Shown piece by piece: positions 10,148-31,562 of a stretch of 64,000 nucleotides of DNA (position 1 is the first letter of the stretch; every line of letters starts with the position of its first letter). Source of the DNA: Patescibacteria group bacterium (GTDB lineage: Bacteria > Patescibacteriota > Kazan-3B-28). The notes beneath the pieces were generated by a model that saw only the letters and a program-made list of their open reading frames with translations, was not told the DNA's origin and did no database searches. The translations under genes and the position numbers were made by a program. Location of the stretch: positions 445,438 to 509,437 of the forward strand of contig JBAZNQ010000001.1 in the NCBI GenBank assembly GCA_041649135.1, written 5' to 3'.

Positions 10148-10162
10148 ATACACAAAAAACAC

Positions 10163-10506: not shown

Positions 10507-11991
10507 CTATTTAATGTCAGATAAAAACTGGAAGATCTTAACCATCGCATAAGTGTCTAACTCACAGTATTTGGTTAGGTCTTTAAGAATCTTATCTTTC
10601 TCCTCGGCTCTTTTCCCATCTAAGACAGCTTCCATCCATAACCTTTGGGCGGCTCCACCGGCATGAATATCTAAATCCTTATATGAAAGTTCAGGGATAA
10701 GAACAGGCAATACCTGCTTGATTGAAGCACTCCCAAAGAAGTCCTTGTGAATGTAGGAACCAGTTGAGAAAGGAATCATCAAATCAACAATCCGATCATT
10801 CAGATCTTTATAAAAAGTTTTGAATTCTGGGAGTAGAAGTCCCAAAAACTCATTACAAGTCTTTTCAAAACCCTCAAACCAAACCAAGACCGTACCGCTA
10901 TCACCGATGTGCGACTTGAGCGATTCCGAGATTGGTTGTGCCGGGTTGCTGTTCTCGTGATGCAGATATTCAAAATGCTTTACCTCGCCTCCGGGCTTCT
11001 CGATGACGTGAAGAGAGTATTGAAACGGTAATTGTTTATACGGCCCTAACCCATCAAAGTACGGCACTACACTAGACAGGGTTTCGTAATCGAGGAAATA
11101 CAGGGGGTATTTTAGCTCAGACAAGAACTGCTTGATTTTTGGCTTGTCCACTAATACCTCGTCACACTTGGTTGCCTGAACTTGGCCTTGTTGTTTTACA
11201 CTAAGAGCAAAATCTTCCGGAATGTCTTTTATCTGCTTAATGCCCAATGTTTCAAGTTTGCCAATCTTACTCGCACCAGGAGCACAAAGATCATAAATAC
11301 TATATTCCTCTACCTCGGCAAGGGTCTTGAAGATCCCGAGCCAGTCATTGAAAGCCCCTAGCTTAGTCAAAGAAGGTGAAATATCTGGACACTCTTTAGA
11401 ATTCATCACCGCCAGAGCTTGTTTGATATTCTCTCTGGTAGTCTCCCGTAGTGCTTTGACTTGGTCAGTAACTTCAGTCATCTTGGCCAGATCTTTGGCC
11501 GTAACTTCTCCATTTCTAACATATTCATTGTTTACATGAACAACATAAATCTTGTTCACCTTGTAACCACAGTCTTCTAGCACTACCATCTGAAATGCCA
11601 AATCTGGCTCATGCTCTGGCTTAGCATGAGTGCTGGATTTAATCTCATAAAGATCGAACTCATTGTCCTTAACCCGAACCAACACATCGCAGATACAAGT
11701 AATGTCACCAGCTTCAAAGCGACCCTGCATAATAGTGATCGCCCCAGACTCTATCACTTGTTTCGTCTCGGCAGTTAACCTTGCGTATGCCTTATAGTCT
11801 CCTCGATCATATTCTAGCTTTGTGGCATCAGGGAAAAGCTGTTCGGCATATGTCTCGAACAGGAAACCAGCATCAAAAATCGCCTGTGTGTCTTCATCTA
11901 CAGGGGGTAATTTATCTTTGGCGTGTTTCTTGAGCCAGAGCCAGGCCGGATGGCGGAGAAACAACATATAATCTGACTTTGAGAGTTGCAT
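10507..11991 (-). CDS. DUF2779-like protein: N-terminal PD-(D/E)xK (RecB/Cas4-like) nuclease plus C-terminal RNaseH-like exonuclease domain
   Basis: D…EIK motif (CDVLVRV…DLYEIK) and a C-terminal FLDYETL… region. Confidence 0.55.
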   Translation of the reverse strand: MQLSKSDYMLFLRHPAWLWLKKHAKDKLPPVDEDTQAIFDAGFLFETYAEQLFPDATKLEYDRGDYKAYARLTAETKQVIESGAITIMQGRFEAGDITCICDVLVRVKDNEFDLYEIKSSTHAKPEHEPDLAFQMVVLEDCGYKVNKIYVVHVNNEYVRNGEVTAKDLAKMTEVTDQVKALRETTRENIKQALAVMNSKECPDISPSLTKLGAFNDWLGIFKTLAEVEEYSIYDLCAPGASKIGKLETLGIKQIKDIPEDFALSVKQQGQVQATKCDEVLVDKPKIKQFLSELKYPLYFLDYETLSSVVPYFDGLGPYKQLPFQYSLHVIEKPGGEVKHFEYLHHENSNPAQPISESLKSHIGDSGTVLVWFEGFEKTCNEFLGLLLPEFKTFYKDLNDRIVDLMIPFSTGSYIHKDFFGSASIKQVLPVLIPELSYKDLDIHAGGAAQRLWMEAVLDGKRAEEKDKILKDLTKYCELDTYAMVKIFQFLSDIK

Positions 11992-12085
11992 AAATTTATT
12001 TTGAACTATTTTTTACAATCTCTATCTCCTCTGGGGTAAGGTTATAGAGCCGATAAACCATCTGATTAATTTGATTTTCGTATTC

Positions 12086-14353
12086 TTAATTCAGGTTAAG
12101 AATTTGAAACTCTTTTAGTGAAGGGTTGTAAGAATATTTTACGCCTCTATTAATCTTCCAGCCGTTTGGTCCGTCTTGTACGACAATCCCTCCATCAAAG
12201 CCCTTCTTGCCTTTAAGCCATTTTTGGAGCGCTTCGGCTTTATATCTCGTGTCACCACTTTCTGCAGTTAAACCCGCTTTAGTATCAAAGATACAAACAG
12301 CGGCTTTTGTCTGTACTATCCAGTCAGGATAAAATAGTTTTTCTTTATTTTCGTCTGTGTTGTAGTAAGAAATTGAAAAATATTCGCTCCCAACATCGCC
12401 ATTCTTATACCACCAAATAACATTTTTGGATGATTCGAGAAATTTAATAAACGCCTCCTCATTGATCCGCCCAGAGTATGCTTTTTCTATCCAAAATGGT
12501 TCCATTGCTGATTTCTTGACTGGTAATGACTCATATTGATCAGTAAAAAATAGAGTACCACGAGGGATATCAATATGCTCGATGCGTCGTGCGCGAGAAG
12601 ATCGCCTATTCACTTCTTGCTCCCGAACGGGACGATATGTCGAAAGTGAATCGCCGATAAGTGGTGCAAGTACCCCTGCCGGGCTAACGAGATCATTTAC
12701 GATAATTCGATAGACGTCAGCTCGAGAGATACCAAGCTTATTCATTAACCAAACATTTAAGGCCGTTTTTAGTTTTCCCCATGATCGTTCAGGGGCGAAT
12801 TTTTTGTTTTCGTCAACCTGGTTGGCGATTATCTTAAAACAAAGAAGGTTATAGAGTCGCTCAAGGTCATGCCGTGACATTTCTTGATCATGACTTCCGC
12901 CCTCCGCAAAAAGTTCTTTTGTGAAATTATCATAGTCATCTATTTCTACGCCAACAATTAAACCGTTTGTTACTTTTGGTTTCAGGTTCAATCTCTTAAC
13001 ATCAAATTTTTTATCAGCAACCTGTTTAAAAGTTTCTTGGAATGAGTCTCCCAAGTCGTTGTAGTCAGTGCGAGTCATAAAAATCGACTCTAGTTGAATT
13101 GGCTTTACATTCTTTTTACGATAACTGGCATTCGGTGAAGGACGATTTTCCGTTTTTGATTTTGCATACTCAGCAAGTACTTCGTTTCTCTTATAGTTAG
13201 TATAGAGATAACCCAAATTCAACTCTGGTTTAGGAAAGTGATAACCAAATGGCATACGTAAGATTCGTCCCACGGTTTGAATCGCAAAAGTGGGATTTTT
13301 AATTTCCCTGAACATCACCAGTACACTTGCTCTGGGGCAGTCCCAACCAGTAGCGGCGGCCTGTTTAAAAAGCAGAAATGCTACTGGAGAGTCGCTCTTT
13401 TCTAAATCCTCAAGGTTCTCCTTTTCCCTTGAAAGCCAAACGGCAATCTCATCGTTTTTTAGACCCTTACGCTTCAGATACTCCGAAACTATTGCCTGTT
13501 TCGTTGTCCCACCTGCTTCTTTAGACGCCTGATCATCGTTTGGTAACTGAATAAGAACGAGCGGATTGACCTTTATATCCAGCTCTTTGTATAAAGCAAT
13601 AATCTCTTTGCGCTTATTGTAGGCAAGTTCTAGGAGTAATTCGTCCTGATCGAGATTTTTGATTGTTTGTTGCTCTAAATCCTCTTCGGTTTGAAAAACA
13701 ATCTTTTCCTTAATAAGACCTGCTTCAATAACGTCTAACCTCGGCACATCAACAAACTTATATATCTCTCCTAATTTTGGTTCAAACAATGGTGTAGCTG
13801 AAACTCGAAGAGTAATTTTGGGTTTTACTAAGGCAATTACCTCATCCGCCAAAGCTGATCGAGTCCCCAACTGCTCTTCATCTATAATCAATACAATTTT
13901 TATTCCTGCCTCATGACTTTCGTTAATAAAATTATCAAAAGTGAGTCCAGTTTCATTTTCACGACGCAACTTTCGGCTTGCTTTGTCAGTGGCTTTGATC
14001 TTCTGCCAATTTATGAAAAATACATTATTTCTCTGTAACCTTCCGCGAGATAGGTCATTCAGATCAATCAAATCCAACTCTGAAGCTCCACCGTAATACT
14101 CAAAAAGTTTCTTTTTGCTTTGCTCATACGAATCCTCGCTGAAAGAAAACCAAATAAACGAGACGTCGTTACCCTCAAACCGAGGATCACTAACAATATC
14201 CCGTAAAAACTGTGCGAGCATGATTGTTTTGCCAGAACCAGTTGGTGACTTAAAAACCAATGGAATATTCTGATTTGGATTCTTCCACAACTCAAGAAAG
14301 TCATTCTTGAGATTAGATATCGCAGCTTCCTGAAAAGGTTTTAATACCAACAT
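12086..14353 (-). CDS. res: Type III restriction enzyme Res subunit (SF2 helicase-nuclease)
   Basis: Walker A SPTGSGKT and a DEEQ box. 755 aa, immediately downstream of the mod gene. Confidence 0.8.
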   Translation of the reverse strand: MLVLKPFQEAAISNLKNDFLELWKNPNQNIPLVFKSPTGSGKTIMLAQFLRDIVSDPRFEGNDVSFIWFSFSEDSYEQSKKKLFEYYGGASELDLIDLNDLSRGRLQRNNVFFINWQKIKATDKASRKLRRENETGLTFDNFINESHEAGIKIVLIIDEEQLGTRSALADEVIALVKPKITLRVSATPLFEPKLGEIYKFVDVPRLDVIEAGLIKEKIVFQTEEDLEQQTIKNLDQDELLLELAYNKRKEIIALYKELDIKVNPLVLIQLPNDDQASKEAGGTTKQAIVSEYLKRKGLKNDEIAVWLSREKENLEDLEKSDSPVAFLLFKQAAATGWDCPRASVLVMFREIKNPTFAIQTVGRILRMPFGYHFPKPELNLGYLYTNYKRNEVLAEYAKSKTENRPSPNASYRKKNVKPIQLESIFMTRTDYNDLGDSFQETFKQVADKKFDVKRLNLKPKVTNGLIVGVEIDDYDNFTKELFAEGGSHDQEMSRHDLERLYNLLCFKIIANQVDENKKFAPERSWGKLKTALNVWLMNKLGISRADVYRIIVNDLVSPAGVLAPLIGDSLSTYRPVREQEVNRRSSRARRIEHIDIPRGTLFFTDQYESLPVKKSAMEPFWIEKAYSGRINEEAFIKFLESSKNVIWWYKNGDVGSEYFSISYYNTDENKEKLFYPDWIVQTKAAVCIFDTKAGLTAESGDTRYKAEALQKWLKGKKGFDGGIVVQDGPNGWKINRGVKYSYNPSLKEFQILNLN

Positions 14354-14357
14354 AGAC

Positions 14358-16121
14358 TTATAGACGGTTTAACTCTTTGTATACCTCAAGAATCGGCTCA
14401 GGGATATCCTCGACTCGGATATTTTCCGAAGAATATTCACCTTTATATTCATTTTTACCCCAGCTAAAAATGTATAAAGCAACCGGCATATCTTTCTTCC
14501 CCAAACTTTTGACTAACTCCTCCAGCTTTGATTTATCTTCCTGAAAATAAATTGCAGACATCTGTTCATGTCCTCGAAATATCTGCCACCAATCGTTCCT
14601 CTCGATTTCATTAAGTGTATCTTCTCGCACCGCAATCATCTCTCCGGCTTGATAGGTAATGCGAATTTTTGCCTCATCCGGCACTTTGTGGATTTGTTCA
14701 ATATCCACGAGGTCAGTTTGGTAATACCAGAAGTTGCTCGGAATACCTAATACTTTATCGTCATTTTTATTCTTATATCCATTAATGACAGCATTGATAC
14801 GGGGGTAGCAAACTGATTCGGCAATGCCCCCATTGCCGTCATTATTATTTTCGTTATTAGTACAGAGTATAAATTTACGGTTACCACCATCCGCCTTATT
14901 CATCTCTAAAACAGCATGCCCAGTTGTCCCTGAGCCAGCAAAAAAGTCTAAAATATTTGCGTTTGGACGTGCACCTACAACAGCAAAAATACAGTCATAT
15001 ACAGTATAAAGTGACTTGGGGAAATCAAAATCACAATCTGGGATTATCTCACGCAGAAGCTTTGTTCCATACTCACCTGCATCATATTTCTTATCCGTCC
15101 AAACGGTTTTGTATGTTCCGTAATCTTTTGCAATCATTATCTGGATCATTCCGCCGTGCGATTCCTTAACCTGAAGGATATCTTTTATTCCCTCAACACT
15201 CTGTCTTGCATATCGCCACTTTCGTTCAACGCCCTTTTCGTCAATTGGCCAAACATAAACACTACCATCTTTTTTCTTTTCGTTTGCCGACTTCGGATGA
15301 ACATCGTCAGATACAACATTACCGAAGCCAATAATCTTTCCACTTTTTATGATCAATGGGTAGAAACAATTTCTTGCATCTGTACGCTTAGACTCATTGC
15401 CCCAATTACGCAAATTGGAAATATAGACCTCATCCTTAGCAAGAGAACGATCGCCGATGGTCTTTTTATTCTTCGGAACAACAAAAATTGCATATTCATG
15501 AGTATAGGAAAAGTTAGTGCCTTGGACACCCTTGGGATTATGAATAATGGTTACCGTATGTTGTTCGTGTGTTGGGAACAATTGCTCAATCAGCACTCCC
15601 AAATGTGCCTGCTCATTATCATCAATCGCACAAATCATTACACCATCATCTTTCAATAAATCTTTTGCCAAGCTGAGGCGATGGCGCATAAATGAGAGCC
15701 ACTTACTGTGTCTGTATTCGTCATCCCGATCCACATAATCATTGTTGTATTTCCAGTTTTTTGCGCCTGTGTTATACGGCGGATCAATGTAGATGAGATC
15801 AATATTCTTTTTGTGGGTGTAGTTGAGAACCGACAGTGCGAGATAGTTATCACCCTCAATCATCAAGTTATTCGGATACGCCTCGTCCAAATTAAGGCGG
15901 TTTTTAACAACTTCTTTCAGAACGGGGACTTTGATTTTTGATTGCTCAACAACATCTTCCATCTTGTCTTCAAAAACCAGCCCAAGATTGTTCTTCTTGA
16001 GTTTTTTGATTTGAGCTTGTAAATCCGCCACCTCTTTTTGTAAATCTTTTCCAGACATAATAATCACCCTTAAGCCATTCGACTCTAGCTCTATTATGGC
16101 TTCTTGCGAAGCTTTTTCCAA
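14358..16121 (-). CDS. mod: Type III R-M Mod subunit (N6-adenine DNA methyltransferase)
   Basis: DLIYIDPPYNTG (motif IV) and FFAGSGTTGHA (motif I). Confidence 0.85.
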   Translation of the reverse strand: MEKASQEAIIELESNGLRVIIMSGKDLQKEVADLQAQIKKLKKNNLGLVFEDKMEDVVEQSKIKVPVLKEVVKNRLNLDEAYPNNLMIEGDNYLALSVLNYTHKKNIDLIYIDPPYNTGAKNWKYNNDYVDRDDEYRHSKWLSFMRHRLSLAKDLLKDDGVMICAIDDNEQAHLGVLIEQLFPTHEQHTVTIIHNPKGVQGTNFSYTHEYAIFVVPKNKKTIGDRSLAKDEVYISNLRNWGNESKRTDARNCFYPLIIKSGKIIGFGNVVSDDVHPKSANEKKKDGSVYVWPIDEKGVERKWRYARQSVEGIKDILQVKESHGGMIQIMIAKDYGTYKTVWTDKKYDAGEYGTKLLREIIPDCDFDFPKSLYTVYDCIFAVVGARPNANILDFFAGSGTTGHAVLEMNKADGGNRKFILCTNNENNNDGNGGIAESVCYPRINAVINGYKNKNDDKVLGIPSNFWYYQTDLVDIEQIHKVPDEAKIRITYQAGEMIAVREDTLNEIERNDWWQIFRGHEQMSAIYFQEDKSKLEELVKSLGKKDMPVALYIFSWGKNEYKGEYSSENIRVEDIPEPILEVYKELNRL

Positions 16122-16200
16122 ATCTGATTTTGTCTGGACTTCGCCACCCCTTCGGGCATCCTTGTCCTTGATATAGCCCTATAGACAAATGGAGAAAAAT

Positions 16201-17556
16201 ATGGCGAAAAATGAAGCAATTCTGGGAGCTCCCGAGGGGTCTTCGGAGGCCCTTGAGCAACCACAAGGAGCCAAGTACTGTCTCTATGCCCGGAAGTCCT
16301 CAGAGCAGGATGAACGGCAGGCCCTTTCCATAGATAGCCAAATTAAGGAGATGTTGGCGATGGCCGAAAGGGACGGGATAGAGATCGTGGAGACTATCAA
16401 GGAAAGCCACTCAGCCAAGGACTCAGGCCAAAGACCTGCCTTTACCGAGCTTCTACTGAGAATCCGAGAAGGTGATTTCAATGGCATTCTGACATGGGCT
16501 CCAGACCGATTAAGCCGAAATGCCGGAGACCTCGGCTCCCTTGTCGACCTTATGGACCAAGGGCTTCTGCATGAAATCAGAACTCATGGTCAGATATTCA
16601 GAAACTCCCCTAACGAGAAGTTCCTCTTGATGATTCTCTGTAGCCAAGCCAAATTGGAAAATGACAACAAAGGCGTAAATGTTAAGCGAGGGATGCGAAC
16701 CAAATGTGAAATGGGCTGGCGACCGGGAGTCGCCCCCATAGGATATCTCAACAACTACGCAGATAACACTATTACGGTAGACCCGGAAAGAGCTCCCATC
16801 ATCAAAGAAATATTCAATAAGGTGGCCAAGCAGGGAGATTCAGGGCGCGACATTTTCAACTGGATCAACAATGAGACTTCCTTTATTACTAGAGGGGGCA
16901 AAAAAATGCCCTTGAGCACAATTTTTCTGATTCTCAAAAATAGCTTCTACTACGGAGAGTACACATACGGCGAGGGAACCTACCACGGCAAACATGAGCC
17001 ACTTATCACAAAAGAGCTATTTGATGAGGTGCAAGTCAGAATTTCCAAACCCGCCCATGGCCGTCATGGCGAGAAATGTTTCGCCTTCGCCAGAATGATG
17101 ACCTGTGGCCAATGCGGAGCCGGAATTACTGCCGAAGAAAAATTCAAGCGATTAAAGAATGGCGATATGATACGCCATATTTACTACCACTGTACCGACG
17201 GCAAAAGACTCGGCTGTAAACAACCCTATGTTAGGGAGGCAGATCTCATCGAACAATTTGTAGAAATAGTAGACAAGCTAACCTTAGACAGGATAGGGAT
17301 GAAGGATAGGTTACAAGAAGAAATAGACCGCTACAACAAGTTTACGCAAGGCGTGTTGGGGATGGACCCTTCCACTCAGAAGATGCCTCGAGTAGATCTA
17401 AAAATGTACGCCAAGTACATCCTGCGAGAAGGTCGCAACGAAGAAAAGAGAGAGGTGCTGAGCCACATCCAAAACAAAGTTGTACTGAATCAAGGGAAAC
17501 TAAAACTACAGGATAATAAGCAAGCCAACATGCCGGAAGTAACCCGCGTCAACTAA
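16201..17556 (+). CDS. Large serine recombinase (resolvase/invertase N-domain, recombinase domain, zinc ribbon)
   Basis: YARKSS catalytic serine motif, DRLSRN, and a CGQCG…YYHC zinc ribbon. GGAG RBS before ATG 16201. Paralog of 29847..31451. Confidence 0.85.
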   Translation: MAKNEAILGAPEGSSEALEQPQGAKYCLYARKSSEQDERQALSIDSQIKEMLAMAERDGIEIVETIKESHSAKDSGQRPAFTELLLRIREGDFNGILTWAPDRLSRNAGDLGSLVDLMDQGLLHEIRTHGQIFRNSPNEKFLLMILCSQAKLENDNKGVNVKRGMRTKCEMGWRPGVAPIGYLNNYADNTITVDPERAPIIKEIFNKVAKQGDSGRDIFNWINNETSFITRGGKKMPLSTIFLILKNSFYYGEYTYGEGTYHGKHEPLITKELFDEVQVRISKPAHGRHGEKCFAFARMMTCGQCGAGITAEEKFKRLKNGDMIRHIYYHCTDGKRLGCKQPYVREADLIEQFVEIVDKLTLDRIGMKDRLQEEIDRYNKFTQGVLGMDPSTQKMPRVDLKMYAKYILREGRNEEKREVLSHIQNKVVLNQGKLKLQDNKQANMPEVTRVN

Positions 17557-17777
17557 TTTATTAAGCCCTGGATGCAGGTCGCTCGACCTGCATAATCAGT
17601 TGATTGACCCAAGTTGGGATATGCCCTAAGACAATCTTCGTAACCCTTGGTGGCTCGACCTTCTTTTAGAATAGGATAATCCTCTACGGAGAGCTGATCA
17701 CTACAGCTGACTGATGCCACACCGATAAACACAATAACCAATACGAGAATGATTGTGAAAATTAAAACTTTTTTCAT
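17553..17777 (-). CDS. Small secreted/lipoprotein-like protein
   Basis: Signal peptide MKKVLIFTIILVLVIVFIGVASVSC. Confidence 0.4.
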   Translation of the reverse strand: MKKVLIFTIILVLVIVFIGVASVSCSDQLSVEDYPILKEGRATKGYEDCLRAYPNLGQSTDYAGRATCIQGLIN

Positions 17778-17789
17778 CTTAGTAAACCT

Positions 17790-18386
17790 TTATTTATAGA
17801 GCGAGTAATATTCTTTCCCTGCTTGCCAAAGATATTGATCAATCGTTTTTGGATCATATTGTGTCAGCCCGTAGAATGTTCTGAACTCGTCAATAATCTC
17901 TCGGAACTTGGGATAATCCTTTAAGTCCTGGTTGCTAAACTTAGCAAACTGATCAGTTCGCTTGAAATGGAGCAATAGTTTTTCCACATAGGAATCGTAG
18001 ATTGGATAAATCTTGGGTTGGTGACGACTACAATACTTGGTGGCAAATGAATAAAAACGGCGAGTCTTTCCGCCGTTCATCTTTACCGTAGCAATCTGAT
18101 TAACAATTCCGAGGTCTCCCCGCTTCAGTCCTTCATCTATCCCCAAGCTCTGGATATGCCGAGCCACGGTCAGCGGATCAAGGATGTTCGTGCTGTATAA
18201 AACATTGAGAGAGCACACCTTAATCAGAATGTCGTCTAGATTGTTATTGAGAGGATAGGTTGTTAAAAATAGCTTATTTAAACTACTCTCCTTTAACCCA
18301 TCTTCCTTTTGTGAACCCCACGGTTTGAGATAGCGTTCTACCTCTTGTAGGGTTGGGCGTGGTATCGTTAGTCCTTCTCGGCTCAT
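17790..18386 (-). CDS. Hypothetical protein
   Basis: 198-aa ORF. Confidence 0.45.
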   Translation of the reverse strand: MSREGLTIPRPTLQEVERYLKPWGSQKEDGLKESSLNKLFLTTYPLNNNLDDILIKVCSLNVLYSTNILDPLTVARHIQSLGIDEGLKRGDLGIVNQIATVKMNGGKTRRFYSFATKYCSRHQPKIYPIYDSYVEKLLLHFKRTDQFAKFSNQDLKDYPKFREIIDEFRTFYGLTQYDPKTIDQYLWQAGKEYYSLYK

Positions 18387-18434
18387 GGTTGACCCTCTTT
18401 CCGGTGAGTCGCCCTGGCCTCTAATTGATTAATC

Positions 18435-18590
18435 AAAAGAGGGCAGACCTCACACCTAGTCAACCCATGACTTCTACTCCGAAGAATAGTCATCACGGTA
18501 AGTAGAGCATCTGCCCACCTCTGACCGTGATGACGGAGAAAAAAGTACTACAATTCGGAGTTGTAAATATACGAAAAAGCCATGGGTTGA
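18435..18590. other. Structured inverted-repeat element (GGGCAGACCTCAC…GCAGAGCATCTGCCC; GTCATCACGG…CCGTGATGAC), homologous to 29069-29230
   Basis: Shared blocks AAAAGRGGGCAGACCTCAC, GCAGAGCATCTGCCC and TTGTARATATACRAA. One copy lies near each serine recombinase. Confidence 0.6.
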
Positions 18591-18606
18591 CGCTTCCAGC
18601 ATAGCA

Positions 18607-18640
18607 TAAAAAACACCCCTGCGAAGGGGATGTTTTTTGG
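18607..18640. terminator. Bidirectional intrinsic terminator (AAAAAACACCCCTGCGAAGGGGATGTTTTTT)
   Basis: CCCCT/AGGGG stem flanked by an A-run and a T-run. Confidence 0.6.
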
Positions 18641-18669
18641 GGCTAATCTGGTTTTTGGGCTCCCAGACC

Positions 18670-18930
18670 GAAGTAGGCGCTTTAAGGCACCTCGGTCATT
18701 TGACTCGTTTTTGTTTGGCTCAACAGCTCGGTCTCGGTTGGTTTTCCACGCTAGTCCTCCATAGCGCTATCTATATCAGAAGAGGCTAATGACCTATTTC
18801 TGATGAGATAAAGCGTAGGATGGAAGGAGATAATCTAGAGGTTTTGAAAGGGTGTTTAGGGGGACAGGTTTTGTGTAACACCCATAGGAGAAAATGAGAC
18901 AAATGCGACAGTACTTTGGATGATTTTTAG
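18670..18930. repeat. Composite repeat (full Type-1 plus Type-2)
   Basis: The Type-1 core ends with …TGGCTCAACAGCTCGGT. Type-2 contains GGAGATAAT…CCCATAGGAGAAAATGAGACAAATGCGACAG. Confidence 0.75.
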
Positions 18931-18985
18931 TGTTGAGATCAGAATTTGATTCTTGAATTCTTCCTTTTACGGAATGGGGTAAGAA

Positions 18986-19804
18986 TCATTCTGCAATTAA
19001 TTTTTTAGAAACTGAACTATTCACCTTTTCTACGTACAACCTATCATTCTCTACTCTCAAATCGTTATAGTCCCCAAGATCCTGTCTAAAAGTTTTTTCT
19101 ATTTTATTGCTTTCTAAATCCCAAATAAACAAATAACCGTCGGACCAACGTGCACCAACTGGCGTCCCCCAAAAAGCCATTTTTGTATTATTGCTAAAAA
19201 ATAATACCGGCCAGTAATCTGATCTTCCTCCCATACTTATCAGCTGAACGCTTAAGATCGGCTCAATCGTCATCCCGAGTTCGGCGCTCATTATTGTATT
19301 CCCTTGCCAGCTTCTTTTAAATATCTTATCTCCGGAGATATAAAAATATCCGCTCTCGTCCGGTGCCACGGCTACAATGTTGCCTCCGATATGTATTTCT
19401 TCTATCGTGTTTTCGCCCTCTGATTTTGGCGATCGATGCACAATATAACCGCTTTCCATTGATGAAAAATTCGGATCGCTATATGCAATCAGGGCAAAGT
19501 CCTCTCCGCTATGGATGAGGCGGATATCATTGATTTCGCCTTTCAATTTGTATCGAAAATTTGGCGCATCATTTTTTCTGTCATGAATATTGATGACCGT
19601 AGTTTTCTCTTTGTTCCAAAGCCAAGGAGTATATTGATAGGCACTCAAACTCAATCCGGCACCTGTGTCGTTTGCTACTTCAGTGATATTTGGGAAATAT
19701 AGTTTTTCTGCCACTACAAAGCTGAATACTCCTGCGCCAATAATGACGGAGAAGATAATAATCGCAATTATCTTTAAAGCCTTCTTAGCGATTAAAGTCA
19801 TCAT
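18986..19804 (-). CDS. Membrane-anchored hypothetical protein (N-terminal TM, beta-rich ectodomain)
   Basis: The ORF track starts at a TTG inside the Type-2 repeat. The more likely start is the MMTLIAKK… Met preceded by a TATAAT box. Confidence 0.4.
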   Translation of the reverse strand: MMTLIAKKALKIIAIIIFSVIIGAGVFSFVVAEKLYFPNITEVANDTGAGLSLSAYQYTPWLWNKEKTTVINIHDRKNDAPNFRYKLKGEINDIRLIHSGEDFALIAYSDPNFSSMESGYIVHRSPKSEGENTIEEIHIGGNIVAVAPDESGYFYISGDKIFKRSWQGNTIMSAELGMTIEPILSVQLISMGGRSDYWPVLFFSNNTKMAFWGTPVGARWSDGYLFIWDLESNKIEKTFRQDLGDYNDLRVENDRLYVEKVNSSVSKKLIAE

Positions 19805-19829
19805 CTTGATAATATTATAGATTGTCAGG

Positions 19830-19870
19830 AGAAAATGAGACAAATGCGACGGTGGCAGGGGGGTATCAAA
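19830..19870. repeat. Type-2 repeat copy (CAGGAGAAAATGAGACAAATGCGACGGTGGCAGGGGGG)
   Basis: Fills the 22-bp gap between the ccdA stop and the next gene. Confidence 0.7.
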
Positions 19871-20564
19871 CTAACCACAGCCAAACGCCCAATCCCAACA
19901 TAATCACACCCGCAATCAAGTGCAGGATCCGAATGTTACTATCCTTCCATGCCGCTGTTCGAGTGGCCGTAGAATACCCCCAATAAATTGCTAATAGAAT
20001 AGCCACTAGAGGCAACACAAAAATCAGGTTGTAGTACAAAAGAATCCCCAGAGCAGATAGCCATGAAAACCCCTCACCCAACAATCCTAAGGTAAATAAA
20101 TATGGCCCACCCGTGCATGGAAGCTCGAAGAAGGTCACCAGCACACCAGCCCCAAATGCCGTCCAAGGCATTACTACACCAGACAACAAATCCTTGATTT
20201 TCGGTCGCCATCGTCTGGGGATTTCAGTCACAAACCCCAAACTCCCATACCAAAAATAGTCCTTGATGTTGGCAAGACCAATCAAGACAGCGATAACAGC
20301 AACCAATTTATGTAAGATTGGCGCAACCCCTGTTAAATGGATGGCCCCCAACAAGCCAACTCCGACTAGGTAATAAGCAACAAACAGACCTAATATAAAC
20401 ATCAACCCAGTAAATAGAATTGTCCGTTGTGACTTAATTGATAACAATCCGGTTAGCAAAAGTACCAGCACAGCAATGGCGCACGGATTGATAGAATCAA
20501 CTAAGGCAGCGCCGGTAATCGCCCAAAAAGTTGGTTCAGTTAAAATAGTCGGCGAACAACTCAT
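19866..20564 (-). CDS. ccdA: Cytochrome c-type biogenesis / disulfide electron-transfer protein CcdA (DsbD family)
   Basis: Two conserved Cys motifs in TM segments: INPCAIAVL and FELPCTGGPY. Confidence 0.8.
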   Translation of the reverse strand: MSCSPTILTEPTFWAITGAALVDSINPCAIAVLVLLLTGLLSIKSQRTILFTGLMFILGLFVAYYLVGVGLLGAIHLTGVAPILHKLVAVIAVLIGLANIKDYFWYGSLGFVTEIPRRWRPKIKDLLSGVVMPWTAFGAGVLVTFFELPCTGGPYLFTLGLLGEGFSWLSALGILLYYNLIFVLPLVAILLAIYWGYSTATRTAAWKDSNIRILHLIAGVIMLGLGVWLWLV

Positions 20565-20568
20565 ATTT

Positions 20569-20841
20569 TTATTCTATACGAATCGCTTTACCACGTACCA
20601 TGGCATCAGCCAACTTAGCATAAGCCCGTTGCAATATGCGACCAAAAGTGGCTTGAGATGTCTGCATTTTTTTAGCGGCAAGGGTTTGTTCTAATTTATT
20701 GAGATGGCGCAATCGAAGAGCTTCCCCCTCCTCTCTTTCCAGCACTACTATTTCAAGCTGACGCAAAGGGACACCCGCCGGCTTAAAAAATGTCACCGGC
20801 GGATGAAAATTCACCTTGCGTTGATTTCTTGGTCGAGCCAT
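20569..20841 (-). CDS. DUF134 (UPF0251) sigma-70 region-4-like DNA-binding protein
   Basis: PRNQRKV…FKPAGVP…ALRLRHL…MQTSQATFGRIL signature. Confidence 0.55.
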   Translation of the reverse strand: MARPRNQRKVNFHPPVTFFKPAGVPLRQLEIVVLEREEGEALRLRHLNKLEQTLAAKKMQTSQATFGRILQRAYAKLADAMVRGKAIRIE

Positions 20842-20842
20842 C

Positions 20843-21082
20843 TTAGCAGTTCTCCCCTTTCATCAATGTCTTACACTTTGGGCATGGAATTTCAGTGCAT
20901 ACCACCCCTCTTTGGGTATGAGGAATTTGGTGACCACACTTAGGACAAGTACAAACATTTGAACCAAGCGGTCTTCCGCCAGCCAACCCACGACCCTGAC
21001 CAAGTCCGCCTCGGCCACGGCCCAACCCCTGACCCAAACCTCGACCTGTATTACCTGTTCCGTCTCTTCCTGGCATAATCAC
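20843..21082 (-). CDS. Gly/Arg-rich small protein with a C-terminal CxxC…CxxC zinc ribbon
   Basis: GRGLGQGLGRGRGG repeats. CTCPKCGH…CPKCK. Confidence 0.4.
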   Translation of the reverse strand: MIMPGRDGTGNTGRGLGQGLGRGRGGLGQGRGLAGGRPLGSNVCTCPKCGHQIPHTQRGVVCTEIPCPKCKTLMKGENC

Positions 21083-21189
21083 CTCCAGAAATTAAGTCTA
21101 TAACATTATGAGTATATATTCATAACCAAAACCTGTCAAGCAAAGCTTAACTCACTCGAATCTCTTACCCTAAACTGACTATTGAATAA

Positions 21190-22296
21190 CTACTCCGACC
21201 GAACAAACTTGACCGCCAACAAAGTGGTAATCGGAACAGCCAAAGCGATGCCAATACTCCCCGTCAGAGCTCGCACTACCTCTACGGCAATTACCTCGTT
21301 ATTAATAACTTGACCAAAGGTTAAGAATGGCTCCTGATGAACGGTAAAAAGCAACAACAACGGTAAAGCCGCTCCGGCATAAGCTAAAAACAACGTATTC
21401 ACCATTGAGCCTAAGTGAGAAACCCCAACTCTCATGGCTTGCCAATACAATGCAGTAGCAGACATTTGCGGGTTTGCCTCTTTCAGCCCCACCACCACCG
21501 CCGTTTGAGAAACCACCACATCATCCAACACACCTAAAGCTCCAATCACCATACCAGCTAGTAATAATCCCTTAATATTGATCACTGTGTCAGTCAGCCC
21601 GATCAAGAACATACTTTCTTCGCTATTAAACCCCGTCAACCTAGTCAATTCCGTAAACCATACTGATAACAAGCCAGTAATTAACAAGGTAACTATCACT
21701 GAAGAAATAGCGATAGTCGAGGTGCGCTTAAACCCTTCTGTTAGATAAATTGCCATCACCAAAATCATCAAAGAGCCAACAATGCTCATTGTTAACGGGT
21801 CCCGACCTATTAGTATTTGGGGAAGAATAAATTTTAATATCACTACAAAGGTCAGTGCCAACACCAATAACGCCCTGACCCCCTTCCATCCACCCACCGC
21901 AACTACTATTGCGGCAAAAATAATTGCCAGCCATACCAATGGCGGCGTCCTGACAATGTTGAGAATATAAAAATTATCCGATCCATCAGACGATGGGCTT
22001 GATTGCACCATTACCTTATCGCCCACTTTGTATTCATTAGCCGACATCTCGTCGTATTGGGTGCCGTCATAGACAATCTCTTGCCCTTTCCGTTCACCAG
22101 TCAACACCTCAAGCTTTATTTTCTGTTGGATAGCCGTTGAACCATCCTCGCGAGATGAGATATTTTGTTCAATAATCTCTATCACCTTAGCTGAAAGCAC
22201 CGAACCACTGTTACTTGGTTCAGCAGTTTGGGCAAGGGCTACGCTGGGGCACAAAAATAAGATTGGCAAGATTAGAAACCATTTTTTCATGCCCAT
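21190..22296 (-). CDS. YibE/F-family membrane protein with an N-terminal signal peptide
   Basis: Signal peptide, then a soluble domain, then a polytopic region with a GVLDDVVVSQ motif. Confidence 0.5.
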   Translation of the reverse strand: MGMKKWFLILPILFLCPSVALAQTAEPSNSGSVLSAKVIEIIEQNISSREDGSTAIQQKIKLEVLTGERKGQEIVYDGTQYDEMSANEYKVGDKVMVQSSPSSDGSDNFYILNIVRTPPLVWLAIIFAAIVVAVGGWKGVRALLVLALTFVVILKFILPQILIGRDPLTMSIVGSLMILVMAIYLTEGFKRTSTIAISSVIVTLLITGLLSVWFTELTRLTGFNSEESMFLIGLTDTVINIKGLLLAGMVIGALGVLDDVVVSQTAVVVGLKEANPQMSATALYWQAMRVGVSHLGSMVNTLFLAYAGAALPLLLLFTVHQEPFLTFGQVINNEVIAVEVVRALTGSIGIALAVPITTLLAVKFVRSE

Positions 22297-22469
22297 ATTA
22301 TAACATTCAAAGATTAGCTCGGCATGAGCTAATACACTACCTACATATTGTTTAATCTAACCGATGAAAGAGTGAACCACTTTACGCACCCCTCCTATCT
22401 AACCATCCCTATCGGATAATAAACTGAAAATCTTCAGTCGGAGACAAATCAGACAAGGACGAGACGAAG

Positions 22470-22850
22470 TTACGATCTGTCTGTGGATTTCCCCACACCC
22501 AAAGGTTGTCCGTACCCTACCACTAAATACAGTATCCCCGGAATCAGTACAAGTAACATATTCATACTAAAACTTGCTTCTGTTGCCAGCGCCAACAGAA
22601 GACTAATCACCATCGGGATGATAATGAGATAGCCTCCGATTTTCTCACGCCACCAACCAACGGCCAATCCTATAAACATTATCGGCATCGCTGTCAGCAT
22701 GACATTTTCCCATAACGAATAATCAGGATTGATAAACGGCAACGGATTGCCGTAGCCAAAATAGAACATCAAACCAACCACTAATATCAACAAAGCGACG
22801 ATTCTGGCAAACCATCTCATAACTCCAACTTGTTCTTTTTCCATTCTCAT
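22470..22850 (-). CDS. Hypothetical membrane protein
   Basis: 126 aa with 3-4 TM segments. Confidence 0.4.
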   Translation of the reverse strand: MRMEKEQVGVMRWFARIVALLILVVGLMFYFGYGNPLPFINPDYSLWENVMLTAMPIMFIGLAVGWWREKIGGYLIIIPMVISLLLALATEASFSMNMLLVLIPGILYLVVGYGQPLGVGKSTDRS

Positions 22851-22886
22851 AATGTTCTTACTTTTGGTATAACTTCTTTCAATCGC

Positions 22887-23270
22887 TTAATAACCAATCA
22901 GCAACTTGGGGATATTCAGATTTCCCTCTATATATCCAATCGCTCGCTTCAGTTCTAATTGAGACAAGGCGGTATCCCGATCCATTCTTTCTCCAGCATA
23001 ACCAGTATAATATTTTTTCAAAATCGGCAGGGATCGTTCGTCGCCCAATTGTCCCAAAGCCCAGATCGTCGAATTACGAGACTCATATCCGTTACCCTCA
23101 TCATCCAAATATTGGGTCAAGGCCTCAACACAATCTCCGTCATAATGACCTTGAGCAATCTTGCATTGTTCACCAACACCATAACCAATAAAATTCAAGC
23201 TCAAAAGAAAAACAAAAAGACCCAATGAGATGACGATACCTAAACCATAAAGAATTGTGTGTTTATCCAT
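22887..23270 (-). CDS. Membrane-anchored HEAT-repeat protein
   Basis: N-terminal TM segment. IWALGQLGDERSLPILKK is a HEAT/PBS-lyase-like repeat. Confidence 0.45.
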   Translation of the reverse strand: MDKHTILYGLGIVISLGLFVFLLSLNFIGYGVGEQCKIAQGHYDGDCVEALTQYLDDEGNGYESRNSTIWALGQLGDERSLPILKKYYTGYAGERMDRDTALSQLELKRAIGYIEGNLNIPKLLIGY

Positions 23271-23273
23271 AAT

Positions 23274-23477
23274 CTAAAACCTATAACTAAATATTTCTTC
23301 AATCGACTTTTTAAAAACCCGGGCAATCCTAAAGGCCAATTCCAGAGAGGGAATGTATTTATCTTTTTCCACAGCGATTATCGTTTGCCGAGTTACGCCA
23401 CATTTTTGAGCCAAATCTTCTTGGGTCATGTTATGTTCGGCGCGAGAAACCTTGATTCGATTATTCATCTGCGCCAT
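23274..23477 (-). CDS. XRE-family helix-turn-helix transcriptional regulator
   Basis: [39 protein letters not shown] Cro/CI-type HTH. Confidence 0.75.
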
Positions 23478-23856
23478 ATTTTTTGTCGAAATAATTATAG
23501 GACAAAGAATAAATAGTAATCAGCAACAGCGCAATATAGCAAAAAACCACTCCCATTGATTCAAGGTAAAGGCTGGCGTGCTTTTGGGCAGAAAAAATAA
23601 AGAAGAGCCCAAGACAAGCCATCAGCATAGTCACGACCACATAAGTAACTTGAGAAGCTCTCCCGCTAATTGAAATCACTCTTTCATCCACAACCACTTT
23701 CTTAAACCGCTTCTTGGCCACAAATAGAAACAACATCCCAATTAATATGCCAGCAAAAGCCAGATAAAGATTGCTGGTGATGGTGGCCACAACCACTATT
23801 GTCCCGATTAATAGCCCAATCAACACCCTAATTTTTTGATACTGGTTATAACTCAT
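23461..23856 (-). CDS. Small membrane protein co-transcribed with the XRE regulator
   Basis: 17-nt overlap with the XRE gene. Three TM segments. Confidence 0.45.
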
Positions 23857-23989
23857 ACTCCTTATAATGTAAAGTATATCATACTAATTGTAAAGGGTAC
23901 TTTACACTACGTCAACAATGCCCTTGAGAACACTTGGGGTCGCTTGGCCCTCTTCATAAGCGGGTAAGGAGCACGCTAGTACTAGTTGG

Positions 23990-24060
23990 CTCAGGCAAGT
24001 GGTAAATGAGACGGTGGCAGGGGGGTCTGTTTCACTGTGGATTTTGAGAGGTTTTTGTGG
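23990..24060. repeat. Type-2 repeat copy (GGTAAATGAGACGGTGGCAGGGGGGTCTGTTTCACTGTGGATTTTGAGAGG)
   Basis: Shares its tail (TTTCACTATAGATTTTAG-like) with the 4570-4710 copy. Confidence 0.7.
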
Positions 24061-24109
24061 CGTAATGATTCTCCAACCTTACCGTACCCAATGAGCAGAC
24101 CCGAAGAAC

Positions 24110-24616
24110 TTAATATAGCCAACTGCGATATTTGGGCGTAGCATCTTTCATATCTTCATACAGCCACACCATCCGATCAGCAAACCATAATTTACTGATA
24201 ATAATCATAGCCCCACCAAATATGACTGACCATACCTGAAACATCGCTAGTCCCCAGATAAAGAAGAGCCCGCCGATTCCACCCACGGCGGATAAAATAT
24301 TGGGTAAAGTTTGATGATGTTGGGGTACTGGTATATTTTTACGATTCATCCAAACCCACTCGCCCAGCACTACTTTGGATGCCCAGTTGTTGGTACTTTG
24401 GGGCGCAGTAAAAACCCGTGGATTAAACCAGACCCACAACAGCACTATGACAATTGGAACAAGTGACCACCATCCGAGCCAAATTCTACTCCAAAAGGCC
24501 AGACCTATTAACGGCACCATAGAGAAACGAGAATAAACACTCCAGGGGCTAGAATGGCGTCGACGAGTCGGCTCGTCCATCCTAAAGGCTTTGGCAATAT
24601 TTTGTTCTAAAGTCAT
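24110..24616 (-). CDS. Hypothetical Trp-rich membrane protein
   Basis: 168 aa with multiple TM segments. Confidence 0.45.
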   Translation of the reverse strand: MTLEQNIAKAFRMDEPTRRRHSSPWSVYSRFSMVPLIGLAFWSRIWLGWWSLVPIVIVLLWVWFNPRVFTAPQSTNNWASKVVLGEWVWMNRKNIPVPQHHQTLPNILSAVGGIGGLFFIWGLAMFQVWSVIFGGAMIIISKLWFADRMVWLYEDMKDATPKYRSWLY

Positions 24617-24633
24617 AGCACGAACGAATCAAT

Positions 24634-25404
24634 CTACTCAACTGCAAATAACCCAACGCTATTGAAGTAGTGGATGAGCTTTCCCCCACTAGTAAGGATG
24701 ACTCGAATAGTCGGATAGTTATAGACATCACCAGTTAGACCTTTGGGAAGCTTGTAGCTGGTATCCTGCCAGATCCATTCATGAGCGGCGGCTACATTGA
24801 CCGGGTTCTCTTTGCTCGGCTGGTAGGTGAAGTCGTCCTGGAGCTGAGTGAAATTAGAGACATTTTGAGAGAGGAAGTCCATGGCGATGGTCTCGATTTG
24901 AGATTGGGTTTTGGTAGGAATATACAGAGAACCATAGCTGGCGCATTGGGAGGCATTGAGTCCCACACCTCCCAGTAGGTTCTGGATCTCTTCCGGATAG
25001 CGAACATGGATATCTACTATCTGATTATTACGAGCATCTATCTCGTACTCATAGACCTCGCACTGTTCATTGATGTATTGGGTTTGTTGAAAGACATAGA
25101 CTGGACGTTGCCACTCTGCCGGGGTATCAGTTCGCCATGCTCCATCACCCAGCTGGGTAGCTGTTCCAATAGTGAAGTTAGAGGGATTCTTTTGGGTGGT
25201 GATATATCTGACAGTCGGGTTGGAATCAGCCATGAGATGCATGAAGCGTTGGATGACAAGCTGGATTTGGGCGGTTACCGCAGTAGTCGGCTCTGGCAGT
25301 ACGCTAACATCCCGGGTTGATGACTTCGGACTCTGCCATGCCCAGATACCGATGGCTACAACAAAAACGACGGCTAAGATAGGAATTAGTTCGAGCTTCT
25401 TCAT
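24634..25404 (-). CDS. Hypothetical secreted protein
   Basis: N-terminal signal/anchor MKKLELIPILAVVFVVAIGIWA. Confidence 0.45.
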   Translation of the reverse strand: MKKLELIPILAVVFVVAIGIWAWQSPKSSTRDVSVLPEPTTAVTAQIQLVIQRFMHLMADSNPTVRYITTQKNPSNFTIGTATQLGDGAWRTDTPAEWQRPVYVFQQTQYINEQCEVYEYEIDARNNQIVDIHVRYPEEIQNLLGGVGLNASQCASYGSLYIPTKTQSQIETIAMDFLSQNVSNFTQLQDDFTYQPSKENPVNVAAAHEWIWQDTSYKLPKGLTGDVYNYPTIRVILTSGGKLIHYFNSVGLFAVE

Positions 25405-25424
25405 GGTTCTATTGTATACCTCCT

Positions 25425-25500
25425 AAAGGACGCTTTGAGGCACCTCAGTCATTTGACTCGTTTTTATTTGGCTCCGTTGGCTAGAAGAAGTCAGGACTTG
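25425..25500. repeat. Type-1 repeat, variant tail (…TTTGGCTCCGTTGGCTAGAAGAAGTCAGGACT)
   Basis: Same head as other Type-1 copies. Shares its tail with 26640-26700. Confidence 0.8.
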
Positions 25501-25515
25501 TAACAGTGTTCCATA

Positions 25516-26031: not shown

Positions 26032-26097
26032 GTCTATATCTTATCAGGTTCTAACTCCTATTCGGGGTACAAAAATAACCAGCTCCTATGGCTGGTT

Positions 26098-26215
26098 ATT
26101 CTCTGGCTCCCCCTGCTGGATAAGTTTAGAAAAGTTGACTGGATAAAAGTCAGAAGAGAGTTAGATGATTTTGTATTAAAAAATGTCGGGGTTTCACCGA
26201 CTTCTATCGCCTGAG
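26098..26215. repeat. Type-3 repeat/gene-fragment (…LWLPLLDKFRKVDWIKVRRELDDF…*), homologous to 672-770. Begins with TGGCTCCCCCTGCTGGAT, which resembles the tRNA-Asn 3' end TGGCTCCCGCGGCTGGAT.
   Basis: Direct comparison: 15/18 identity with the tRNA-Asn 3' end at 31410-31427. Confidence 0.5.
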
Positions 26216-26229
26216 CGATAGCCGTTACG

Positions 26230-26586: not shown

Positions 26587-26639
26587 AGGTTCATCACCTC
26601 CACTGATGATGATTTATATATATCAAAAAACTCGCTTTC

Positions 26640-28860: not shown

Positions 28861-28872
28861 TCGTTTTCTACC

Positions 28873-31560: not shown

Positions 31561-31562
31561 AA

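Follow-up and report, generated by a model that had tools for sequence, protein, structure and literature searches.

A tightly folded RNA of about 160 nt in the mobile elements of Patescibacteria

Mobile elements of CPR bacteria carry an undescribed, tightly folded RNA of about 160 nt, which is present twice in the 64,000-nt stretch of DNA from a Patescibacteria group bacterium analysed here (the window). The RNA is encoded on the minus strand of the window, folds into a three-way junction, forms a long-range pairing between an apical loop and its own 3' tail, and recurs next to large serine recombinase genes and tRNA ends. As a family it is real and has not been described before; its general kind is known (a mobile-element leader or a small RNA), but its design is unusual. 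Judged from its neighbourhoods, it probably belongs to the conserved backbone of those CPR prophages and integrative islands that have a large serine recombinase gene and are located behind tRNA genes. From the conserved promoter, the structured domain, the terminator-like helix and the variable gene at a fixed short distance, we infer that it acts as a cis-acting leader or attenuator of a variable cargo operon, with a probability of roughly 0.5. CPR/Patescibacteria make up a large part of bacterial diversity and, to our knowledge, almost nothing is known about gene regulation in these bacteria or their phages. The RNA marks the cargo slot of CPR serine-integrase prophages and islands, and could serve as a handle for finding them and their defence cargo in metagenomes, as an example on which an unusual design of terminator or pseudoknot can be tested, and as a candidate regulator of prophage-borne anti-phage genes.

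The two copies, their fold and their relatives

Copy A (18433-18593, 161 nt) and copy B (29064-29230, 167 nt) both lie on the minus strand, score 159.6 and 122.5 bits with the family covariance model, and are 74% identical on alignment, with long identical blocks. The first-pass annotation, made from the sequence alone, had described a homologous pair of inverted-repeat elements at 18435-18590 and 29069-29230, each beside a serine recombinase. The pair is confirmed with the extents given above, and both neighbouring open reading frames encode large serine recombinases, 0.88 kb from copy A and 0.50 kb from copy B. The core blocks GGGCAGATGCTCT (13 nt) and GTGAGGTCTGCCCT (14 nt) occur exactly twice each in the 64 kb, all on the minus strand (shuffled sequence gives, with up to two mismatches allowed, means of 1.25 and 0.31 matches, respectively), and the 64-kb window holds no third copy of the element. 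The inverted repeats named in the annotation are likewise present, GGGCAGA/TCTGCCC in both copies, GTCATCACGG/CCGTGATGAC in A and CTGTTAGG/CCTAACAG in B; its quoted consensus strings have minor errors, in that copy B reads AAAAGGGCAGACCTCAC (one G less than the pattern) and copy A reads GTAGAGCATCTGCCC, not GCAGAGC. The longest inverted repeat had been overlooked: it is the outer stem, GTCAACCCATG/CATGGGTTGAC in A and GTCTACC.GAAACC/GGTTTC.GGTAGAC in B, which differs in sequence between the copies while its pairing is kept.

Folding both copies and looking for covariation, as the annotation had suggested, gave folds far more stable than those of dinucleotide shuffles and helices that covary. 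The minus-strand folds reach -67.1 kcal/mol in A (z = -5.7) and -73.7 kcal/mol in B (z = -5.0), the plus-strand folds -55.8 kcal/mol (z = -5.3) and -61.6 kcal/mol (z = -4.3). Folding and covariation together give a three-way junction of the helices P1, P2 and P3 (Table 1). Across 21 distinct sequences, 92% of the cells of P1 (16 pairs), P2 (8) and P3 (10) are paired, compared with 35-51% when partners are slid by 1-3 columns, and 28 of the 34 pairs show compensatory, both-sided change; the alignment was fitted to the structure model and pairing is thereby inflated, but the variety of pair types within single columns and the result of sliding the partners argue for a real signal. G·U pairs number 50 in the family alignment and A·C pairs, which would be G·U on the opposite strand, 14, so that the functional strand is the minus strand of the window and the molecule is RNA. 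Members are 150-175 nt long with a P1 of 14-19 bp, and the accessory hairpins P1a and P2a are found in some lineages and absent from others. Conserved unpaired nucleotides are few, and the junction sequences and accessory hairpins are variable, which argues against a small-molecule pocket in the junction.

Table 1. Positions in the window of the two RNA copies and of the features around them
Feature	Positions	Strand	Basis and remarks
Large serine recombinase A	16189-17556	+	Pfam Resolvase, Recombinase, Zn_ribbon_recom; convergent with copy A and its cargo
Cargo behind copy A	17553-18386	-	198-aa ORF 17790-18386; 74-aa ORF 17553-17777
Copy A, 3' tail and U tract	18458-18433	-	fold, covariation
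Copy A, P1	18591-18575 / 18475-18459	-	fold, covariation
Copy A, small hairpin	18572-18563	-	fold
Copy A, P2	18561-18554 / 18483-18476	-	fold, covariation
Copy A, P3	18534-18525 / 18498-18489	-	fold, covariation
Copy A, apical loop L3	18524-18499	-	fold, covariation; contains GGGCAGAUGCUC
Promoter-like motif of copy A	TTCGCA 18625-18620, 16 nt, TGC-TATGCT 18606-18598	-	family motif; overlaps the hairpin
Hairpin CCCCTTCGCAGGGG and T run upstream of copy A	18629-18606	-	terminator scan (both strands)
Second GAGCCA (TGGCTC on +)	18716-18721	-	far end of island B; followed by AACAAAAACGAG...
Cargo behind copy B	27390-29041	-	doubtful 57-aa ORF 28868-29041; DUF3800/PDC-M04A 27886-28584; PDC-M04B 27390-27893
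Copy B, tail and U tract	29089-29064	-	fold
Copy B, terminator-like site	29097-29072	-	terminator scan; with TTTTGTGATA
Copy B, P1	29228-29215 / 29103-29090	-	fold
Copy B, extra hairpins	29209-29195, 29183-29172	-	fold
Copy B, P2	29194-29185 / 29118-29109	-	fold
Copy B, P3	29170-29160 / 29134-29124	-	fold
Copy B, L3	29159-29135	-	fold
Promoter-like site of copy B	29235-29263	-	TGGATA, 17 nt, TAAAAT; 9/12 consensus matches
Large serine recombinase B	29730-31451	+	Resolvase, Recombinase, Zn_ribbon_recom; divergent from copy B, 500 nt apart
tRNA-Asn, integration target	31410-31484	-	3' end ...GGGAGCCA, the junction of island B

These properties bear on the possibility that the element is a DNA site, either an attP, attL or attR used by the recombinase next to it or a site of some other type, for instance an origin. 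Its closeness to the recombinase genes and its wealth of inverted repeats had led the first-pass annotation to propose att sites, and both are real. The att site of a large serine recombinase, however, is an imperfect dyad of about 40-50 bp around a central dinucleotide, whereas the element has three nested helices and a long-range helix within 150-175 nt, and its compensatory changes preserve pairing and not sequence, with the excess of G·U over A·C expected of selection on RNA. Together with the position of the copies relative to the element-host junctions (described below), this makes a DNA site barely credible, and an inverted-repeat-rich element beside a serine integrase need not be an att site.

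About 25 copies were collected, all of them in Patescibacteria/CPR genomes, metagenome contigs or IMG/VR viral contigs, a confinement that describes the copies found rather than a proven absence elsewhere, because the search pattern demanded two invariant blocks with 20-21 exact bases of loop and tail. Most members were retrieved by this pattern, which gave one contig in IMG/VR, 8 true homologues among 71 matches in genomes (Patescibacteria-group, Saccharibacteria and candidate division Kazan, the remaining matches being due to chance) and 14 loci among 40 matches in metagenomes, two of which duplicate genome loci. Run over 53 IMG/VR loci that had been fetched via the recombinase protein, the covariance model added L114, the divergent L143 and L152/L155 and re-found the L001 copy in L115 (the same contig), and most of these 53 loci, with their related recombinases, have no detectable copy of the RNA. 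A hand-written descriptor (a hairpin, enclosed by an outer stem, whose loop is the complement of sequence further downstream that leads into a T run) added L122, L126 and L159, which have different loop and tail sequences; it matched once in 30 shuffled loci, and several of its low-scoring matches in real sequence look spurious. A search of IMG/VR for relatives of recombinase B gave one locus, with no strong RNA candidate by the descriptor. With Rfam 15 at the gathering threshold only tRNAs are found in the window, and scans of copy A, copy B and the L046 copy at permissive E-values return unrelated sub-threshold noise only. GenBank phages contain no DNA similar to the element and match the recombinase at less than 30% identity only, and the RNA is not described in the literature searched.

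The loop-tail helix

Over 19-24 nt there is complementarity between the apical loop of P3 (23-26 nt, including the invariant GGGCAGAUGCUC) and the 3' tail (including the invariant GAGGUCUGCCC) together with the conserved U tract. In copy A, loop and tail are complementary over 24 pairs, with the A/G-rich 5' part of the loop pairing with the U tract. Across the family, on the same model-fitted alignment, 94% of the cells of these 24 pairs are paired, compared with 39-53% when slid. Covariation is seen in six pairs, three of which lie in the distal part and one or more at the U-tract end (A-U/G-C); the search pattern had fixed none of the six. A structure-blind MAFFT alignment that includes the distant variants leaves the helix in register, with 91% paired against about 40% when slid, and the mean duplex energy is -23.3 kcal/mol for loops and tails of the same lineage and -13.5 kcal/mol across lineages. 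On sequence comparison, the clearest evidence for the pairing is provided by the distant variants L122, L126, L143, L152 and L159, whose loop and tail sequences differ while complementarity and a following T run are kept. Loop and tail are GGGCAGAU and GUCUGCCC in the main lineage, GGGGCAGU and GCUGUCCC in L143, UGGGCAGC and GCUGUCCA in L152, GUGGCAGC and GCUGUCAC in L159, and AACGGACAUUCCGACC and GGUCGGGUGUCCGUU in L122/L126, with U4-7 after the tail in each. The only two loop and tail changes of L114, U to C and G to A, fall at a predicted U·G pair, and a C·A pair is isosteric with U·G.

With its A/G-rich 5' flank, G+C-rich stem and U tract, the helix is built like an intrinsic terminator, except for the apical loop, which in intrinsic terminators is short (3-8 nt); here the arms lie about 55 nt apart, separated by the 3' strands of P3, P2 and P1. 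A terminator stem with a structured 'loop' of 55 nt is an unusual design, and termination at it is a prediction. On geometric grounds the full loop-tail helix should be incompatible with a loop closed by P3, and either a shorter pseudoknot would coexist with the junction or two folds would alternate. Constrained folding gives, for copies A and B, respectively, -50.3 and -54.6 kcal/mol for the junction with loop and tail unpaired and -52.9 and -55.0 kcal/mol for the unknotted terminator fold. The unconstrained minimum at -65.8 and -72.6 kcal/mol, which is the junction with small intra-loop pairs, is far more stable than the unknotted terminator fold. Junction and terminator helix may simply coexist as a pseudoknot that does not switch. 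Leaders with expression platforms typically show alternative pairings; here, competition of the terminator helix with the junction would be steric and not via shared bases. The tail also has alternative partners in the P1 3' strand and in downstream segments near the start codon, all weaker than the loop. A short hairpin of the P1 3' strand with the tail was considered as the terminator itself; it has 9 bp in copy B and is found in most lineages, but RNAs of the L015 and L122 types lack it and it is less stable than the helix of loop and tail, and it was retained as an alternative pairing only. Masking of the Shine-Dalgarno (SD) sequence by the tail is seen in copy A (CCCUCUUU / AAAGAGGG) and not in L027, and was not generalised.

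Upstream signals, cargo and proposed function

The strong bidirectional terminator reported next to copy A in the first-pass annotation was detected on both strands by the terminator scan (18616-18629). A short G+C hairpin with a T run directly upstream of the RNA is common to the family (19 of 22 members by regular expression, 21 of 22 by eye), and 19 of the 22 have a TGnTAnnnT -10 box that ends 6-7 nt before P1, with TTCSCA located in the hairpin loop at -35 distance, 16 nt away. The promoter scan returned nothing for copy A at its threshold (8/12 with TGn extension); for copy B both the promoter and the terminator-like site were flagged by the scans. The RNA is placed between this promoter-like motif and a gene on the same strand, which is the position of a leader. 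The start of a same-strand ORF lies 41-61 nt past the U tract in 12 of 26 loci, a count that masks more cases, as the ORF-picking rule mis-called several further loci with the same protein family. Behind copy A, the 198-aa ORF starts after 46 nt and has the SD sequence AAGAGGG; neither of the two A-cargo ORFs has an assigned function. The most common first cargo gene encodes the PADLOC candidate PDC-S11, a NucS/Cas4-like nuclease, and others encode the further PADLOC candidates PDC-S55 (DUF2939) and, behind copy B, DUF3800/PDC-M04A followed by PDC-M04B, or else an N6_N4 methylase in L143, a DUF4352 protein in L152, an EEP-like protein in L159, and unknowns. The cargo is variable and consists for the most part of candidate anti-phage or defence genes. 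An ORF of 11 codons within copy A, without SD sequence or conservation, was discarded as a leader peptide.

Transcription start, termination at the U tract, read-through and any regulation are parts of a model of the RNA as a cis-acting leader. The hairpin and T run upstream would stop read-through from the tRNA gene, and the promoter embedded in this hairpin (TTCSCA, 16 nt, TGnTAnnnT) would start transcription at the foot of P1. The 5' arm of the terminator would be held in the apical loop of the junction; part of the transcripts would end at the U tract as a 160-nt RNA, and the remainder would extend past it and, after 41-61 nt, cover the first cargo gene. Action on the cargo (moron or defence) genes would thus be in cis, with the junction fold, or a binder of the invariant loop and tail, setting how often the terminator helix closes. 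The alternative in the first-pass annotation, a 'cis-encoded sRNA', was right as to a structured RNA; lying on the minus strand, opposite to both recombinase genes, and reading into cargo, the RNA would be a leader rather than an antisense transcript.

Whether such a leader would be a true switch, in which closure of the terminator helix, and with it the expression of anti-phage and lysogenic-conversion genes, is set by a ligand, a protein or a phage-derived signal bound to the invariant loop and tail, is rather doubtful. A riboswitch usually controls one functional class, and the genes found behind the RNA (PDC-S11, PDC-S55, DUF3800/PDC-M04, N6_N4 methylase, DUF4352, EEP-like and unknown proteins) are no coherent set; this mixture and the small number of conserved unpaired bases argue against regulation by a small ligand. 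If the switch were true, its topology would be new among attenuators, and no regulatory RNA would have been described before it for CPR mobile elements. Attenuating leaders and riboswitches such as ZTP/pfl and the ON switches of the pbuE type have an aptamer that may include a long-range pseudoknot to a terminator-adjacent 3' tail and share with the present RNA a promoter-proximal position on the strand of the downstream gene, a covarying multi-helix domain, a 3' tail with (here predicted) mutually exclusive partners and then a U tract, and variable sequence beyond it. The present RNA differs from them in being so far without ligand, in its few conserved unpaired bases, its P1 of 14-19 bp, its lack of an Rfam match, its changing mobile-element cargo in place of one pathway, and in using the apical loop of the junction as the 5' arm of the terminator. 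The processive-antitermination RNAs of phages, HK022 putL/putR and EAR, are likewise phage-borne, lie just past a promoter that heads a long co-directional gene set, and sometimes occur twice per genome. There is no similarity to them in sequence or structure, the put RNAs being two simple stem-loops, and the RNA described here ends in a U tract.

A stand-alone small RNA acting in trans is an unlikely but serious alternative. It would have its own promoter, end at the terminator helix and, with nearly all bases paired, be very stable; its partner would be a protein or a transcript, of host, prophage or infecting-phage origin, and the cargo would be expressed only through incidental read-through. 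This reading agrees with the promoter-like motif and the conserved U tract, with the accompaniment of a recombinase in three gene orders, and with a loop and tail that stayed invariant while the stems diverged, as expected for a sequence-specific partner. The invariant bases nevertheless pair with one another and leave little conserved single strand for targets, and the distance to the same-strand ORF hardly varies (41-61 nt) and leaves no space for a second promoter. It is quite improbable that the element is only a passive cassette head, a promoter with a stable 5' structure that insulates the cargo from tRNA read-through and protects the 5' end of the mRNA with no sensing or regulation. Such a role would be served by a P1 of 14-19 bp beginning at the predicted start, by the conserved hairpin and T run directly upstream, and by interchangeable cargo, but a stabiliser needs neither a 20-nt invariant loop-tail pair nor a conserved U tract nor a covarying helix of 19-24 bp. 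The leader reading also has to be set beside type III toxin-antitoxin systems (ToxIN), in which an RNA gene, a leaky terminator and a protein gene follow one another and which resemble the present arrangement in promoter, structured RNA, terminator-like signal and a defence-type gene a few tens of bases further on. Unlike in ToxIN, tandem repeats are absent in and near both copies, the downstream protein is not of one family, and no ToxN-, AbiEii- or CptN-like match was found.

Recombinases, tRNA junctions and islands

The link to recombinases holds well beyond the window. An orthologue of recombinase A (recA-type), 60-98% identical, is present in 10 of the 11 evaluable loci found by the RNA pattern alone (those with at least 2.4 kb available downstream), where it lies 0.5-2.2 kb downstream of the RNA in convergent orientation. 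In copy B, L143, L122 and L126 the recombinase is divergent and 0.14-0.87 kb away, the copy B locus and L143 having the order tRNA, recombinase, RNA, cargo, and in L152, L155 and L159 it shares the strand of the RNA and lies downstream of it. Two recombinase-RNA pairs are present in the window, and two in one IMG/VR contig. An intact tRNA gene (Asn, Gln or Trp) precedes the RNA on the same strand by about 90-150 nt in 15 loci, and in four, including copy A, there is only a tRNA-3'-like end ...GCCA upstream. Estimated for 17 loci, with two estimates mis-placed, the tRNA junction is 94-184 nt upstream of the element.

The two copies of the window are located differently with respect to their junctions. 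The 3' end of the recombinase B gene overlaps tRNA-Asn on the opposite strand. In the relatives L068 and L027 the tRNA-Asn end is directly followed by AA(C/T)AAAAACGAG..., and in the window the same sequence follows the second GAGCCA; from this displacement, about 12.7 kb comprising recombinase B, RNA B and its cargo have been inserted there. A further tRNA-3'-like fragment is found at 26103-26121. Copy B is thus internal to its island, with the tRNA junction 2.2 kb away on one side and a tRNA-like fragment about 3 kb away as the next one, and copy A is separated by about 120 nt from the junction at 18716. Like the element in the other loci, with its 94-184 nt, neither copy is therefore at the element-host junction, where an att site would lie in the integrated state. 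In L104, an RNA that shows no difference from copy A over 183 nt, and is accompanied by a recombinase with 98% identity to recombinase A, nevertheless lies behind tRNA-Trp with a different post-tRNA hairpin and junction, a further point against the att-site proposal.

The frequent company of recombinases would also suit an RNA cofactor of the large serine recombinase, acting either as a guide in choosing sites or as a factor for directionality or regulation, as would the persistence of the association through three arrangements and the presence of two recombinase-RNA pairs both in the window and in one IMG/VR contig. This is nonetheless highly improbable. Near-identical A-type RNAs stand behind tRNA-Asn, tRNA-Gln and tRNA-Trp and with four of five junction classes (sorted by eye), RNA types reassort against junction classes, and most of the 53 viral loci with related recombinases lack a detectable RNA. 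Duplexes of the RNA with its own junction are no more stable than those with foreign junctions (-41.6 versus -41.8 kcal/mol; these energies, computed on whole sequences, are coarse, and for L054 and L073 the junction was mis-placed). The stronger argument against a guide RNA comes from the identical RNA located at another target. The IS110 bridge RNA and the IS1111 seekRNA are similar in being structured non-coding RNAs (150-180 nt) whose genes adjoin that of a recombinase close to one end of a mobile element. Here, by contrast, the partner is a large serine recombinase (Resolvase, Recombinase and Zn_ribbon_recom) and not DEDD/Tnp IS110, the loops are invariant while the targets differ, the RNA shows no complementarity to its own junction, and it reads into cargo.

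The recA-type elements look like prophages, as suggested by a terminase-like ORF and by the many copies on IMG/VR contigs; the terminase-like ORF of the window (8407-9960) has a 52% identical homologue in L046, likewise placed relative to the recombinase. The RNA and its cargo, flanked by the integrase and the junction on the tRNA side, look like they occupy the usual 'moron' position. Prophage moron cassettes are also autonomous promoter-gene units between attachment junction and integrase with variable superinfection-exclusion or defence-type genes, but a conserved structured leader of 160 nt common to such cassettes is not known. The recA-type loci cease to be homologous at CTGGACTT, which precedes the start of the recombinase gene by about 90 nt, with a methylase module next in most of them, and this break may be a mosaic boundary rather than the attR of the recA-type element.

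Junctions of recombinase A relatives

In a comparison of 4499-4826 of the homologous locus L104 with window 18433-18720, the RNA is 100% identical and the recombinase 98% identical, while the tRNA (Trp in L104) and the hairpin that follows it differ. The homology between the two ends in the terminator hairpin that immediately precedes the RNA promoter, at a point within the hairpin loop, and this hairpin might be the crossover site itself. These near-identical serine integrases sit at very different junctions. Directly after the ...GCCA of the tRNA lies a hairpin-forming sequence of 30-60 nt, for which five classes were sorted by eye; class 1 closes with another tRNA-like 3' end, a degenerate one (GGTCTGGGAGCCA). 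The classes follow neither tRNA identity nor RNA type nor recombinase similarity.

Feature positions in the window
Feature	Position	Remark
ParB-methylase fusion, terminase-like ORF, three tRNA genes (Arg, Arg, Phe)	6697-9960 and 9997-10237	
DUF2779/Cas4-like ORF, ResIII helicase, N6_N4 methylase	10507-16121	divergent from recombinase A
Conserved stretch of ~90 nt	16100-16188	upstream of recombinase A
Sub-threshold abiF RNA motif match	18315-18352 (-)	
Post-tRNA hairpin-forming sequence	e.g. 18640-18715	from each tRNA 3' end to the hairpin upstream of the RNA
Insert of ~12.7 kb	18716-31409	
tRNA-3'-like fragments within the insert	26103-26121 and 25522-25535	CTGGCTCCCCCTGCTGGAT and AACTAGCTCCCGCG
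Overlap of recombinase B ORF with tRNA-Asn	31410-31451	~40 nt, opposite strand
AATATCC repeat	31508-31567	~7.6 copies
23S rRNA intervening-sequence protein gene	31563-31940	

Sequences and genes around recombinase A

Upstream of recA-type recombinase genes (those of the recombinase A relatives), a stretch with the form CTGGACTT...TTCGGGCATCCTT...GATATAGCCCTATAGACAAATGGAGG is conserved in the window and at the same position in L015, L046, L104, L106, L109, L113, L114 and L115. Inter-locus homology upstream of these genes breaks off at CTGGACTT, and the stretch is a candidate promoter/operator or att arm. The DUF2779/Cas4-like, ResIII and N6_N4 methylase genes form a restriction- or defence-like block, with a methylase gene found at the matching position in L015, L046, L114 and L115. 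The prophage-like region holding the ParB-methylase fusion probably belongs to the recombinase-A element; a homologue of its terminase-like ORF is present in L046. The abiF RNA motif match falls within the 198-aa cargo ORF behind copy A; at 20.6 bits (E = 0.35), where the gathering score is 37, it is probably due to chance.

The insert behind tRNA-Asn

The insert lies between tRNA-Asn, which ends in ...GGGAGCCA, and a second GAGCCA, beyond which follows sequence that adjoins tRNA-Asn directly in the relatives L068 and L027. The tRNA-Asn end and the second GAGCCA probably delimit one or more recombinase-B islands. Because tRNA-3'-like fragments occur inside the insert, tandem or decayed islands are suggested; a hairpin terminator adjoins the fragment at 26103-26121. 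A 5.3-kb island B1 would comprise recombinase B, RNA copy B and PDC-M04A/B, and NUDIX, DUF6653, DUF2178, YibE/F and SfLAP genes would make up a second block after it. The recombinase B ORF overlaps tRNA-Asn, and the order tRNA, recombinase, RNA recurs in L143, there at tRNA-Glu. The short AT-rich tandem repeat is placed between tRNA-Asn and the 23S rRNA intervening-sequence protein gene.

A second genome with paired units

One IMG/VR contig carries a distant RNA variant at L122 3794-3949 and L126 5697-5853, its two recombinase genes each having their own divergent copy, and is a second genome, beside that of the window, with two recombinase-RNA pairs. In both loci the loop word CGGACAU is repeated downstream, and its complement, AUGUCCG, overlaps the start codon of a small membrane-protein gene.
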